The position numbers were made by a program, and so were the translations under genes. 46,171 nt of DNA from an uncultured Candidatus Saccharibacteria bacterium (GTDB lineage: Bacteria > Patescibacteriota > Minisyncoccia > UBA6257 > WO2-44-18). This document shows, piece by piece, positions 11,432 to 34,207 of the stretch. The notes below the pieces were generated by a model, which worked only from the letters and a program-made list of their open reading frames with translations, did not search any database and was not told the DNA's origin. The stretch lies in assembly GCA_964545345.1 (NCBI GenBank), contig CAZJFE010000002.1, positions 1 to 46,171 on the forward strand, in the 5' to 3' direction. Each line of letters begins with the position of its first letter. Position 1 is the first letter of the stretch.

Positions 11432-11654
11432 ACTCAAGGCATTTTTGGAAAAAGAAACCCAAAAGGAAATTTCCGATGATTCGGAGAATTTACTTGCATC
11501 TAACATTTTAGATTCTTTTTCTATGATTAAGATTATCGGCTTTGTGGAATCGGAATTAGGAATTAAGCCGAATATGGAGGAGCTAACACCGGATAATTTT
11601 AATTCCGTGGCAACCATCAGTCAGATGATTGAAAAATGGAAATCAGGAAAATAA
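11415..11654 (+). CDS. Acyl/peptidyl (D-alanyl-type) carrier protein
   Basis: 79 aa with the phosphopantetheine attachment context ILDSFSMIKIIGFVE. It overlaps the ends of both neighbours. Confidence 0.75.
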   Translation: MDIKSKLKAFLEKETQKEISDDSENLLASNILDSFSMIKIIGFVESELGIKPNMEELTPDNFNSVATISQMIEKWKSGK

Positions 11655-30988: not shown

Positions 30989-32587
30989 ATGGAGAAAATG
31001 TCCAAGAAAAGCGAAAAAGAGGTTGAGTTTCTGAAAAATCTGGAGGATCAGTTTGAAAAAGCTAAGCCGGTCAAGGAAGTCGCCGACAAGCTTTCGGAGC
31101 ATGGATTTGAGGCCTATCTCGTGGGCGGTTGCCTGCGCGATCTTTTGCTTGGGAAAACTCCTAAAGATTGGGATCTAACCACCGATGCCAAACCGGAAGA
31201 AATTCTGAAGGTTTTCCCGGATAGTGTTTATGAAAACCAGTTTGGCACGGTTGGAGTGAAAACTCGGTCTGATGATCCGGCAATGGCGTTGGTGGAGGTG
31301 ACTACTTTTCGGAAGGAAGGGAAGTATACCGATAAGCGGCATCCGGACGAAATTACTTTTGCAAAAACTGTTGAAGAAGATCTTTCCCGGCGTGATTTTA
31401 CTATCAACGCGATGGCTTACTTGGTGCATCCTGATAAGCGCCGCGCCGAAGGTTTAGTGGATCCGTTTGGCGGTAGGAAAGATTTAGAAGATGGGGTGAT
31501 CCGGGCGGTTGGAGAGCCAAAGGAGCGGTTTGAGGAAGACGCGCTTCGTTTGATGCGAGCTGTCCGATTCGCCGGCCGATTGGGTTTTTCTGTTGAGGAA
31601 AAAACCGCCCAGGCGATTAAAGAAAAAGCCGGTTTGTTGGAATTTATCGCCAAAGAGAGAATTCGGGAAGAATTCTGCAAGTTAGTAATGACCGACAACG
31701 CGGCCGAAGGAGTGCGTCGCATGGAAGAGCTGGATCTGTTGCGTTATGTGATGCCGGAATTACGCGAGGGCGTCGGGATGGATCAGAACATGCACCATGT
31801 CTACACTGTCTTTGAGCACAACGTTAACGCGATGGCTTACGCGGCGGATGAAAAATTTCCGCTGTATCTTCGTCTGGCGGCTTTATTGCACGACGTAGGC
31901 AAACCGAAATCTCGCGAGTGGAAGGCGAAGCCCACAGGCACTCGAACGCATAATGGGCAAAAAGGCGAGTGGACCTTTCTTCAGCACCAATATATCGGAA
32001 AGAAAATGGTGATCCCGATGTTGGATAAACTAAAGTTCCCTAAAAAAGAGATTGAAAAAATCGCTCTTTTGGTGCGCGAGCATATGTTCGCTTTTGACGC
32101 GGATCTGGGAACCGCTCGGGGCGCGCGCCGTTTTGTGAACCGAGTCGGTCAGGATAATGTTGAGGATTTGATGAAGCTACGCGAGTGTGATCGTATCGGC
32201 TCGGGCACTGAAGTGGCGGTGCCGATGCGTCTTCGTAAATTTAAGGCGATGATTGAGATCGCCATGAAGGATCCGATTAGCGCCAAAACCTTGAAGATTA
32301 ACGGCGGGGACGTTATGAAATTGTTGAAGATTACTCCCGGGCCGAAAGTTGGCGCGGTTTTGGCTGTGCTTCTTGAAAAAGTTTTGGATAATCCGAAGCT
32401 CAACGAGAAGGCCAAGCTTTTAAAAGAGGCGGAGAAGTTGGGGAAATTAGACGACAAAGAACTTTTGGGATTGCGGGAAAAAGCTAGGAAAGAAATAGAA
32501 GAGGCGCAGAAAAGAGTTGACGAAGGGGTAATGGACCAGTATGGTGTTAAGGGTCCGATGGCTAGACCTCCAAAGAGGAAAAAGTAA
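30989..32587 (+). CDS. cca: CCA-adding tRNA nucleotidyltransferase with HD domain
   Basis: YLVGGCLRDLLLGKTPKDWDLTT, RDFTINAMA, and an HD region LHDVGKP. Length 532 aa. Confidence 0.85.
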   Translation: MEKMSKKSEKEVEFLKNLEDQFEKAKPVKEVADKLSEHGFEAYLVGGCLRDLLLGKTPKDWDLTTDAKPEEILKVFPDSVYENQFGTVGVKTRSDDPAMALVEVTTFRKEGKYTDKRHPDEITFAKTVEEDLSRRDFTINAMAYLVHPDKRRAEGLVDPFGGRKDLEDGVIRAVGEPKERFEEDALRLMRAVRFAGRLGFSVEEKTAQAIKEKAGLLEFIAKERIREEFCKLVMTDNAAEGVRRMEELDLLRYVMPELREGVGMDQNMHHVYTVFEHNVNAMAYAADEKFPLYLRLAALLHDVGKPKSREWKAKPTGTRTHNGQKGEWTFLQHQYIGKKMVIPMLDKLKFPKKEIEKIALLVREHMFAFDADLGTARGARRFVNRVGQDNVEDLMKLRECDRIGSGTEVAVPMRLRKFKAMIEIAMKDPISAKTLKINGGDVMKLLKITPGPKVGAVLAVLLEKVLDNPKLNEKAKLLKEAEKLGKLDDKELLGLREKARKEIEEAQKRVDEGVMDQYGVKGPMARPPKRKK

Positions 32588-32589
32588 GT

Positions 32590-32738
32590 TTGCGGGCTGT
32601 AAGCAAAGCTTTCGGCCCATCACTCGGAGAAAGCGCACAAGTAAGCTTGTCCGATTCTCCTTCGTTCGGGCTGTAAGCAGAGCTTGCAGCCCATCATTCG
32701 GAAGAAGCGTACAAGCGAGCTAGTACGATCTTCCTTCA
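32590..32738 (+). repeat. Two tandem 74-75-nt units, each folding into two hairpins, sharing the 5' sequence TTCGGGCTGTA with the tRNA that follows
   Basis: Unit A spans 32590-32664 and unit B 32665-32738, about 80 percent identical. The stem of hairpin 2 changes GGAGAA/TTCTCC to GGAAGA/TCTTCC, which is compensatory. Confidence 0.7.
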
Positions 32739-32740
32739 TT

Positions 32741-32919
32741 CGGGCTGTAGTATATCGGCAGTACACACGCCCCGCCCCCACACCAAAATTTCGGAGAGTA
32801 GTATATCGGCAGTACACACGCTTCGGGTGCGTGAAGGCCGGGTTCGATTCCCGGCTCTCCGACGGTGTGGTGTGGGGGTGAAGGTGCGTGAGGGCTGGGT
32901 TCGATTCCCAGCAGCCCGA
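32741..32919 (+). tRNA. Interrupted tRNA-Pro-like gene (outer): intact acceptor, D, anticodon-stem and T arms, but 115 nt in place of the 7-nt anticodon loop
   Basis: The 5' part is CGGGCTG TA GTAT ATCGGCA GTAC A CACGC (32741-32770). The 3' part is GCGTG AGGG CTGGG TTCGATT CCCAG CAGCCCG A (32886-32919). C1-G72 and A73 match the Pro signature. No identifiable NGG loop. Confidence 0.6.
32792..32862 (+). tRNA. tRNA-Pro (anticodon CGG), 71 nt, no encoded CCA
   Basis: Manual cloverleaf: CGGAGAG/CTCTCCG acceptor, D arm GTAT-ATCGGCA-GTAC, anticodon arm CACGC-TTCGGGT-GCGTG, 4-nt variable loop, T arm CCGGG-TTCGATT-CCCGG, and A73. Confidence 0.85.
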
Positions 32920-32930
32920 CTAAACAAAAG

Positions 32931-32950
32931 CAGGCCCTATGGCCTGTTTT
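32931..32950 (+). terminator. Rho-independent terminator after the tRNA locus
   Basis: CAGGCC CTAT GGCCTG hairpin followed by TTTT. Confidence 0.75.
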
Positions 32951-33022
32951 TGTTTGCTGCCTCTATCCGTAATCTGTTAGACTGTGGGCGTTCTTTGAAA
33001 TTATTAGAAAGAGAGGCCTTCC

Positions 33023-34207
33023 GTGAAAGTAAAGATTTACGACGACATCCACTATTTGACCATTTTGCATTGTTTGCATGATTTGGAGTTTGATCCAGAG
33101 GTCACCGAAGAAAATACGGAGGCGATCTTTGTTCGTTCCAAAGATTTGAAGAAAATGACCCTACCGAGGACCTTAGTGGCGATTGGCAGGGCCGGTTCCG
33201 GTGTGGATAACATTCCGCTTGACTGGTGTAGCCGAAATGGCGTGGCGGTGTTTAACGCTCCGGGCGGCAATTCTAACGCGGTCAAGGAAATGGTATTGGC
33301 GGCGCTAGTGATGGCGGCTCGTCCGATGTTTCAGGCGGCGAACGCATTAGCCAAAGACCCGAAAAATCCCGAAAAACTAAAGAAAGAGTTTAAGGGAAAT
33401 GAATTGGCGGGAAAGCCCATCCTGATTTTAGGAATGGGCGCAATCGGTTCTCGGGTTGCCAAGATGTGTTTGGCTTTGGATATGGAGGTCATCGCTCATG
33501 ATCCGTTTGTTGACCGAAAGAATTTTGATCCGGTAATCAAATTTGTGGATTCTCTGGACGAGGCGGCGGAGTTGTGTCCGAGGTTCATCACCATTCATTC
33601 CGCGTTGACCGATCAGAATCGGGAAATGGTGAATGAAAGATTTTTCCGAGGCGGAGTCGGTATCATCAATTTCGCTCGGGCGGAGTTCGTCGCTGAGCAA
33701 GATCTTTGCGACGAACTGAAGACCGGCAGGGTGGGCGCCTACATTTCCGATTTTGTCCCGAAGAAAATTCCGATTGAGGAATTTTTGAAAACTGGCCGCG
33801 CTGTTTTCTTCCCCCATCTTGGCGCTTCTACCTGGGAAGCTGAAACTCTCGCTACCGAAATCGTTGGAGAACGGATCAATAATTTTTTCTACTACGGAAT
33901 TTGTCGGGGTTCGGTAAATTTTCCGGATATGCCGGATGAAAAAGTTCAGGAAGGGCGAATGCGTTTGCTGGTGAGTAATCACGACGCGCCCGGGCTAATC
34001 AAAAAAATTAGCGAGACGATTAGCGCCGCCGGATTGAATATCGGCTCCATGACTAATCGGAGTCGCAAGGATAGTGGACTCGCCCTGAATTACGTTGATG
34101 TTGATACTCAGCCATCCGATGAGCGTTTGCGGAAAGTCGTTGAAGAAATTGGGCAGATCCCCGGCGTTACTCGCGCCAGGATTTGCGATCCAAATTCAAG
34201 ATATTGA
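33023..34207 (+). CDS. serA: D-3-phosphoglycerate dehydrogenase with C-terminal ACT domain
   Basis: 2-hydroxyacid dehydrogenase core (ILGMGAIGSRVAK) plus an ACT-like tail (RLLVSNHDAPGLIKKISETISAAGLNIGSM). GTG start. Confidence 0.8.
   Translation: MKVKIYDDIHYLTILHCLHDLEFDPEVTEENTEAIFVRSKDLKKMTLPRTLVAIGRAGSGVDNIPLDWCSRNGVAVFNAPGGNSNAVKEMVLAALVMAARPMFQAANALAKDPKNPEKLKKEFKGNELAGKPILILGMGAIGSRVAKMCLALDMEVIAHDPFVDRKNFDPVIKFVDSLDEAAELCPRFITIHSALTDQNREMVNERFFRGGVGIINFARAEFVAEQDLCDELKTGRVGAYISDFVPKKIPIEEFLKTGRAVFFPHLGASTWEAETLATEIVGERINNFFYYGICRGSVNFPDMPDEKVQEGRMRLLVSNHDAPGLIKKISETISAAGLNIGSMTNRSRKDSGLALNYVDVDTQPSDERLRKVVEEIGQIPGVTRARICDPNSRY

Follow-up and report, generated by a model that had tools for sequence, protein, structure and literature searches.

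The window analyzed here, a 46,171-nucleotide (nt) stretch of contig CAZJFE010000002.1 from an uncultured Candidatus Saccharibacteria bacterium, contains a complete tRNA-Pro(CGG) gene lodged in the anticodon loop of a second tRNA-Pro(CGG) gene. The inner gene sits at the tip of a rod formed by two 10-nt inverted repeats, CCCCCACACC and GGTGTGGGGG, which are the ends of a widespread family of Patescibacterial elements resembling miniature inverted-repeat transposable elements (MITEs). The closest relative carries the outer gene uninterrupted; copies of the family that carry a tRNA lie within a second tRNA or its remnants; copies without one do not interrupt tRNA genes among the matches listed. 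On balance we favor a self-rescuing insertion, in which a MITE-like element with a tRNA-Pro(CGG) passenger would have killed the outer gene while supplying a working inner one.

Anatomy of the nested tRNA-Pro locus

The nesting of one tRNA-Pro gene in another is genuine: it was described in an original prediction made from the sequence, and every structural statement of that prediction matches the sequence. The outer gene has an acceptor stem in which CGGGCTG (32741-32747) pairs with CAGCCCG (32912-32918), followed by A73 at 32919, a D arm (GTAT/GTAC), a T arm (CTGGG-TTCGATT-CCCAG) and an anticodon stem whose two strands, CACGC (32766-32770) and GCGTG (32886-32890), lie 115 nt apart (32771-32885). 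Within this interval is an element that measures 104 bp between its ends, and the pairing of its left repeat (32775-32784) with its right repeat (32869-32878) forms the rod. The rod pairing and an identical 23-nt block common to the inner and outer tRNAs, both part of the prediction, were borne out by repeat analysis. Neither tRNA copy encodes CCA. The parts of the locus are given below, with the basis of each assignment in parentheses.

32741-32770, + strand: 5′ half of the outer tRNA-Pro(CGG), with acceptor strand CGGGCTG, D arm and anticodon-stem strand CACGC (sequence)
32771-32774, + strand: left junction tetramer CCCG, replacing loop nt 32-35, which read TTCG when the gene is uninterrupted (alignment of outer and inner genes; empty site in L081)
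32775-32784, + strand: left terminal inverted repeat, CCCCCACACC, of the MITE-like element (repeat analysis)
32785-32791, + strand: A/T-rich subterminal spacer AAAATTT, the would-be 5′ leader of the inner tRNA (sequence)
32792-32862, + strand: inner canonical 71-nt tRNA-Pro(CGG), the cargo and presumed working gene (ARAGORN; Rfam RF00005)
32863-32868, + strand: subterminal spacer CGGTGT, the would-be 3′ trailer of the inner tRNA (sequence)
32869-32878, + strand: right terminal inverted repeat, GGTGTGGGGG (repeat analysis; metagenome copies)
32879-32882, + strand: right junction tetramer TGAA, no duplicate of the left CCCG (alignment; other nested copies)
32883-32885, + strand: GGT, the remaining outer anticodon-loop nt 36-38 (alignment to the inner tRNA and L081)
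32886-32919, + strand: 3′ half of the outer tRNA-Pro, with GCGTG, variable loop, T arm, CAGCCCG and A73 (sequence)

The inner gene has the cloverleaf, the 7-nt anticodon loop with U33 and the TTCGA-type T-loop of a canonical bacterial tRNA. ARAGORN, whose use on the window the original prediction had proposed, calls this gene when run in standard mode, and Rfam matches it to RF00005 with 54.9 bits (gathering score 29) over model positions 1-71. The outer gene lacks a continuous cloverleaf, and neither standard ARAGORN nor Rfam calls it; when introns are permitted, ARAGORN places it at 32741-32920 with a 108-nt “intron” and the non-canonical loop TGAAGGT. Deletion in silico of the element together with TGAA yields an ARAGORN tRNA-Pro(CGG) with the loop CCCGGGT. 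As had been claimed, no excision at the junction regenerates the canonical loop TTCGGGT: the products read CCCGGGT or TGAAGGT.

The 179-nt transcript folds with z = -6.1, and its minimum free energy structure retains the inner cloverleaf at the rod tip. The only bulge in the predicted rod helix is one of 3 nt, confined to one of the strands, and there is no bulge-helix-bulge motif. The earlier dismissal of a group I intron also holds, the insert being only 115 nt and without an Rfam intron match even at E <= 10. Beyond the inner tRNA, the Rfam scan (the window at gathering level; 32400-33100 at E <= 10) returned chance matches only, with no intron, ribozyme, tmRNA or Y-RNA-like family.

The state of the site in relatives was established from two sources. 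A scan of a genome collection with the CCA-adding enzyme encoded upstream of the locus found only relatives of at most 57% identity, which served for synteny; close relatives came via exact-protein look-ups. Groundwater samples from Hainich contain close relatives of this organism. Loci from these and the other sources are designated by L numbers. In the closest relative (L081, CCA enzyme 93% identical) the tRNA-Pro(CGG) gene is uninterrupted and starts 4 nt past the cca stop codon: it is the outer gene of the window with the loop TTCGGGT at the same place. Once restored, the window's outer gene is 2 nt from that of L081 and 1 nt from that of L082, its 5′ half differing by 1-2 nt from these intact genes and its 3′ half being identical to both. 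The inner gene also has a counterpart: the resident, un-nested tRNA of L211 (CCA enzyme 74%) is identical to it at 71 of 71 positions, and that of L209 is 2 nt away. The reverse arrangement is found in L082-84 (78%), where a 5′ half of the CGGAGAG type, the type of the window's inner gene, is followed by inserts and then by a rod-flanked complete gene of the CGGGCTG type, the type of the window's outer gene. The two alleles have 9-11 differences, with compensated stem changes in the acceptor and T stems, and because these differences are compensated both alleles must have evolved as working tRNAs. The window is thus an insertion polymorphism that unites two tRNA-Pro alleles.

The site is empty in L081 and filled in the window and in L220, a 3.6-kb contig from a separate ENA assembly that is identical to the window over the whole cca-serA spacer (481/481). 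The original prediction had held that an ordinary arrangement in relatives, coupled with nesting in one assembly only, would betray an artefact. An ordinary arrangement does exist, in L081; the artefact reading nonetheless falls, since L220 repeats the nested arrangement.

The rod as the ends of a MITE-like family

A metagenome scan with the pattern CCCCCACACC-N(75-105)-GGTGTGGGGG matched at least 120 contigs, besides the window, L004 and L007. Among the matches listed are 111 cargo-less and 14 cargo-bearing copies with exact termini, and it is to these that the following counts refer. Perfect 4-bp duplications flank 58 of the 111 cargo-less copies, and six more have 3-bp duplications; the duplicated tetramers include TAAA (33 copies), TGAA (8), CAAG (7) and TCAA (5). 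The pooled flank profile is T-T-W-A/CCCCCACACC-A-A (the slash marks the element boundary), consensus positions 11-12 being A-rich. The interiors of the cargo-less copies are unrelated to one another, and pairing usually runs a few private bases past the 10 conserved ones. Element copies occur between genes (L185) and within each other (L105, L130, L150, L153). The same 10-nt arms surround a complete tRNA-Ala(CGC) within the anticodon loop of another tRNA-Ala in L004, and AT-rich non-tRNA DNA in L007. Viral contigs gave seven matches, all of them GC-rich chance matches or unrelated repeats.

Because of the inverted repeats, the target duplications, the small size and the presence/absence polymorphism we regard the family, which is widespread in Patescibacteria, as MITE-like; the rod consists of its two terminal inverted repeats. 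The copy in the window shares the inverted repeats and is small, non-coding and polymorphic; its flanks, CCCG and TGAA, form no target duplication.

Several individual copies merit description. At L185:848-953 and 2770-2872, and at L113:10617-10757 and 11493-11594, cargo-less copies fill the junction of one gene with the next. The duplicated TAAA/TTTA overlaps stop codons, and the G-rich end, GGTGTGGGGG, is at the start of the following gene or just upstream of it; these intergenic repeats may affect termination or translation initiation. In L007 (976-1005) a solo mini-hairpin, CCCCCACAT-AACAAGTT-ATGTGGGGG, flanked by TTCAT/ATTCA, adjoins a full element; it may be a member of this family with an internal deletion, or what an excision left behind.

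The 14 cargo copies carry tRNAs of the types Pro-CGG, Pro-GGG, Ala-CGC, Arg-GCG, Arg-CCG, Val-TAC, Thr-CGT and Met-CAT (for the CAT anticodon, Met and Ile2 identities are indistinguishable from sequence alone). All 14 are co-oriented inside a second tRNA or a tRNA remnant, and wherever the outer tRNA can be typed it is of the same anticodon class as the cargo (those of L104, L127 and L139 are too decayed to type firmly). Further nests have variant rods: Ala in L005 and L017; Pro in L007, L049, L051, L054, L055, L067 and L082; Trp in L170; and Arg in L173. The cargo is always central in the element, 3-19 nt from each terminal repeat. Deletion of the element gives a tRNA by ARAGORN in 10 of the 14 cargo copies and in none of the 111 cargo-less ones (Fisher p = 6e-12); not one of the latter interrupts a tRNA. 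This absence is the strongest single argument against a removable insert: because cargo-less copies are never found within tRNAs, we take the insert not to be removable at the RNA level.

The points of insertion follow a pattern. Most cargo copies with exact termini follow nt 4 of a 7-nt loop for which the inner tRNA has TTCG, namely a T-loop or, in a CGN tRNA, the anticodon loop, and in this common case the last three loop nt remain on the 3′ side. The Ala copies are offset by two nt; other copies occupy D-loop regions or replace an arm. The geometry is that of a 4-bp duplication, yet the tetramers are not identical: CYYG stands on one side and TGAA or TAAA on the other, the latter forming the right tetramer in 12 of the 14 copies once all elements are set in one orientation (that of the Ala group is flipped). 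L017 retains the original CGCA. Within one tRNA family the insertion points differ – T-loop and D-loop region for Arg-CCG; anticodon loop, T-loop and position 26/27 for Pro – and for this reason we conclude that nests have formed repeatedly. Other explanations considered for the junction tetramers were a TTCG duplication altered by mutation, a duplication of 2 bp, piggyBac-like donor overhangs and IS200/IS605-like single-strand transposition; none of these fits all cases.

The outer copies range from intact to decayed. Those of the window, L004, L005, L132, L134 and L142 are complete with perfect stems; those of L007, L017, L104, L127, L139 and L175 have lost the 5′ half or an arm, or have gained further hairpin insertions. 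Such a spread would be expected of pseudogenes that differ in age. We read the intact outer copies with compensated differences as two alleles recently joined, a reading for which the window provides direct evidence in the un-nested genes of its relatives.

Origin and consequences of the nest

The account that we favor runs as follows. An element inserted after the fourth nt of the anticodon loop would have split and inactivated a resident tRNA-Pro(CGG) gene. The loss would have been tolerated, the passenger being a working tRNA with the same anticodon and in the same orientation. A tRNA-Pro(UGG) does not read CCG efficiently unless the CGG species is present. Transcription of the passenger would start from the upstream signals of the outer gene, or by read-through from cca, and continue to the terminator at 32922-32955; in the transcript the inverted repeats would pair as a rod and isolate the inner cloverleaf. 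RNase P, 3′ trimming and CCA addition would then free the inner tRNA, the outer halves being by-products that decay over evolution and whose RNA would have no function. Because the junction is no clean duplication, loss of the element could not regenerate the old gene, and the element would become indispensable. Arrival of the cargo would have been by transposition or horizontal transfer rather than by local duplication.

Several observations sit uneasily with this account. Target duplications flank none of the 14 cargo copies, as against 58 of the 111 cargo-less copies (p = 9e-5), and this lack, together with the conserved tetramers, means that the cargo copies did not arise by ordinary transposition or that their junctions were remodelled in a way we cannot explain. 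Cargo copies at neutral sites, which a pure selection filter predicts, are absent from the 14 copies and from the variant-rod cases. No transposase with these ends lies between distant repeat pairs in the 1.6 Mb of DNA examined, where such pairs enclose ordinary genes, or in the Pfam-scanned parts of the window. Many outer copies retain perfectly paired stems unlike those of the inner gene, which could mean recent insertion or a constraint on the outer RNA. Outer and inner copies hardly differ in L049 and L175, a pattern suggestive of local duplication. It is the conserved, non-duplicated junction tetramers and the absence from neutral sites that keep our confidence in a self-rescuing insertion only somewhat better than even.

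Nests confined to cognate tRNA genes and devoid of target duplications (0/14) would also result if they were assembled in place: a palindromic element in a tRNA loop would capture a cognate tRNA copy in situ, for example through hairpin-stimulated breakage at the palindrome tip and repair that copies a paralogue, a sister chromosome or taken-up DNA. Cargo copies would then never have been mobile, the outer gene being dead and the inner one working, as in the account above. The central position of the tRNA in the element, the near-identical pairs of L049 and L175, the nesting of elements in each other and the orphan partial self-copies carried by ∼9% of the tRNAs in the examined loci all accord with such local nesting. 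However, it predicts an intermediate, a tRNA interrupted by a cargo-less copy beside an intact cognate, that is absent from the 111 copies; the inner and outer genes of the window, L103, L134 and L142 differ only by compensated stem changes, which marks them as long-separated working alleles rather than a recent duplication; and conserved junction tetramers across different tRNAs are not predicted. We consider local nesting rather unlikely. Orphan fragments also enter into a further explanation, that the locus is the scar of an integration and excision by a tyrosine recombinase: orphan 3′ fragments, typical of att duplications, are common (L023, L031, L044, L054, L115), and the anticodon loop and T-loop, the sublocations used here, are reportedly those of integrase crossover. 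Yet there is no integrase or recombinase in the Pfam-scanned parts of the window; the insert is ∼110 bp, with inverted repeats shared with elements that make 4-bp duplications; orphan 5′ and 3′ halves flank a whole tRNA, unlike the product of a single-crossover integration; and the two junctions have no direct att-like repeats. An integrase scar is accordingly very improbable.

The original prediction had entertained a functional fate for the outer gene, as a split or tRNA-like molecule held together by the rod. In its fullest form this would have the rod direct excision by RNase III or another endonuclease, with or without ligation, so that both tRNAs, or a two-piece outer tRNA, are used. The perfect acceptor, T and anticodon stems of the outer genes in the window, L004, L005, L132, L134 and L142, kept despite differences from the inner gene, argue for it, as do compensatory outer-stem changes between lineages (L004 versus L005, L132 versus L145), the conserved junction tetramers and a whole RNA that folds far better than shuffled sequences (the z-score given above); in L017, moreover, removal of TTTA and the element would give the loop TTCGCAT exactly. 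The rest of the evidence does not support the idea: inserts of this kind also occupy the T-loops and D-loop regions of other tRNAs, positions from which a working tRNA could not arise, or stand in for entire arms; excision in the window leaves the non-canonical CCCGGGT (C33) or TGAAGGT (G33); the rod lacks a bulge-helix-bulge motif, and there is no match to ribozyme or intron families; truncation or decay affects many of the outer copies; the gene is plain and intact in L081; and the rod consists of transposon ends that are bounded elsewhere by 4-bp duplications, with cargo-less copies missing from tRNAs (0/111), which is unexpected of a removable insert. We regard a functional outer RNA as quite improbable. 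That the locus is a chimera of two tRNA-Pro alleles, produced by assembly or strain mixing, we discount almost entirely. A de Bruijn graph could be misled by the 23-nt block and the T-loop sequence that the alleles share. In L013 (2581-2680) the anticodon loop of the cca-adjacent tRNA-Pro coincides with a scaffold gap of 100 N, and the repeated halves of nested tRNAs may cause assemblies to break there; but the junction and rod sequences occur in neither allele, the same architecture and termini recur in many unrelated assemblies, and the identity of L220 counts as a refutation. Derivation from a tandem pair by two deletions, and a composite transposon, were set aside as unparsimonious, the nesting having recurred independently in many tRNA families and loop positions.

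A self-rescuing insertion may have a more general form, which we advance tentatively and to which we give limited credence: Patescibacteria may carry tiny selfish elements that specifically invade the loops of tRNA genes cognate to their own cargo, destroy the old gene, install a foreign working allele and so make themselves indispensable, a natural disrupt-and-rescue gene replacement in which the choice of target is perhaps coupled to the cargo and the chemistry leaves CYYG...TGAA junctions. Such coupling might be achieved by pairing between tRNA and DNA, or by structure-specific recognition of TTCG hairpin loops. Repeated rounds would explain the alternation of inner and outer alleles, both for Pro (the window versus L082) and for Ala (L004 and L007 versus L005 and L017).

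Should the favored account hold, it would describe a new route for the turnover of essential single-copy tRNA genes in minimal genomes: replacement of one allele by another through a mobile repeat of ∼100 bp. Its signature, a whole tRNA between inverted repeats and within pieces of its own kind, can be searched for. There are consequences for annotation, since standard tRNA finders report the inner gene only, and modes that permit introns produce spurious “intron-containing” tRNAs whose anticodons are wrong. Were the choice of target coupled to the cargo, the system would be a disrupt-and-rescue drive found in nature and might serve as a tool for inserting DNA site-specifically into tRNA loops. 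In bacteria of the candidate phyla radiation (CPR), tRNA genes would join rRNA genes among the insertion-bearing RNA genes.

Genomic setting and comparison with known systems

The nested locus lies in a conserved neighborhood, of which three further features concern us.

30989-32587, + strand: gene for a CCA-adding-enzyme-type nucleotidyltransferase, directly upstream (Pfam PolyA_pol, PolyA_pol_RNAbd, HD and tRNA_NucTran2_2)
32593-32740, + strand: two 74-nt tandem units of two hairpins each (repeat family; folds)
32922-32955, + strand: intrinsic-terminator-like hairpin with a T run, closing the transcription unit (inverted repeat and sequence); the terminator scan listed this hairpin on the - strand

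The window belongs to a chromosome of the Patescibacteria (CPR, Parcubacteria-type): close homologues of the 532-aa nucleotidyltransferase all come from metagenome-assembled genomes of that kind, and the gene order dsbA-like, cca, tRNA-Pro(CGG), serA-like or other is kept in dozens of relatives. The Pfam-scanned parts of the window contain no transposase, integrase or nuclease gene. Within the 3′ end of cca, 48 nt before the RNA cluster, is a sigma-70-like promoter match (TTGACG-17-TATGGT, 32517-32545), which could drive the tRNA cluster independently of cca; it falls in a stretch that relatives conserve as well, but as this stretch is coding sequence its conservation is ambiguous.

The 74-nt units, situated between the cca stop codon and the outer tRNA, are 81% identical to each other and abut the outer gene; each begins with the first 9 nt of the outer tRNA (CGGGCTGTA). 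In each unit hairpin 1 forms a minihelix with an acceptor stem of the outer type, and hairpin 2 has a stem that resembles the inner acceptor. The units fold with z = -3.9 and -6.2, and a compensatory change distinguishes them (GGAGAA/TTCTCC versus GGAAGA/TCTTCC). They are present in L220 and absent from the closest relative, L081, and there are no further copies in the other DNA examined; they are probably debris or accessories of earlier events at the locus. A comparable minihelix, CGGAGAG-TAAGCAAATCTTG-CTCTTC-TTCGTT, is found at L211:4533-4569, just upstream of the tRNA that is identical to the window's inner gene. Its stem matches the acceptor stem of the adjacent tRNA and its loop matches that of hairpin 1 in the window. 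Minihelices that co-vary with the adjacent tRNA behind cca could be remnants of earlier replacements, or substrates or decoys for enzymes that act on tRNA ends.

Other small rearrangements are seen around these genes. In L208 (4706-5584) and L212 (4681-5541) a protein with HNH_repeat (PF18780) takes the place of serA after cca and tRNA-Pro, and orphan T-arm/acceptor fragments precede its gene; a nuclease-carrying insertion may have occurred at the same tRNA locus. Antisense T-arm fragments (e.g., CTGGGAATCGAACCC) lie just past the tRNA-Pro terminator in L081 (2615-2640) and L209 (4650-4670), and in L209 there is, in addition, an extended structured region closed by an orphan acceptor 3′ end (GGCTCCCCGA). 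Remnants of tRNAs thus accumulate in both orientations at the tRNA-Pro locus. Many relatives have, immediately before cca, a tRNA-Arg(TCG) gene whose last 18-26 nt are repeatedly duplicated ∼100 nt downstream (L031:6898-7098, L044:1-197, L051:1402-1580, L063:3550-3732, L004:2420-2622); the repeat in L031 runs past the tRNA end, and this is a different kind of small insertion, at the tRNA 3′ end. Several tRNAs are flanked, 0-2 nt from the acceptor stem, by perfect inverted repeats of 11-17 bp that are unrelated in sequence to CCCCCACACC (L082:6770-6860, L155:2474-2575, L067:1596-1696, L115:2920-3020), and genes arranged so that a tRNA caps a long hairpin seem to be common here.

As had been supposed, no account of one tRNA nested in another was found in the searchable literature, nor any of these repeat sequences or of MITEs in the tRNA genes of CPR bacteria. 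Those tRNA introns that are known from bacteria are self-splicing, and in CPR bacteria insertions have been reported for rRNA genes. The likeness of the family to bacterial MITEs extends to length (∼95-140 bp), inverted repeats, non-coding content, several copies per contig, a 4-bp duplication in most copies and insertion at gene boundaries and in each other. The cargo copies depart from it in having a whole tRNA as passenger, in occurring only in cognate tRNA genes and in lacking a target duplication. No parent insertion sequence of the family has been identified; the C-run ends and T-T-W-A targets recall what we presume to be IS1380/piggyBac-type ends, a resemblance that may serve as a lead.

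Prophages, islands and other integrative elements likewise target an essential tRNA gene, supply a replacement, prefer loops and leave fragments. Such elements run to kilobases and carry an integrase gene, and they exchange the 3′ part of the tRNA alone, leaving a direct repeat, whereas here ∼110 bp bring a whole tRNA, both old halves are displaced and there is neither integrase nor att repeat. Group I introns share the insertion site, being found in the anticodon loops of bacterial tRNAs. They have a conserved P1-P9 catalytic core and are typically 200 nt or longer; the 115-nt insert, in which no such core was found, holds a tRNA, and T-loops too receive inserts of this sort. Archaeal tRNA genes that contain introns, are split or are permuted resemble the nested locus in that a tRNA is in pieces and long helices join the pieces, and mobile elements have been proposed to create or select for disrupted tRNA genes (PMC4390854). 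The present case differs from archaeal split tRNAs in being bacterial, in having no bulge-helix-bulge motif and restoring no loop, and in that the interrupter is itself a complete cognate tRNA.

The Pack-MITEs and Pack-MULEs of plants hold captured host gene sequence between transposon ends, and synthetic cleave-and-rescue drives disrupt an essential gene while delivering a rescue copy; both likenesses are conceptual only. The palindromic elements of Rickettsia, and other palindromic repeats that enter genes, RNA genes among them, are also short selfish palindromes tolerated inside the genes of reduced genomes. In those cases the host product works despite the insert; here the tolerance apparently comes from the replacement gene that the element carries.

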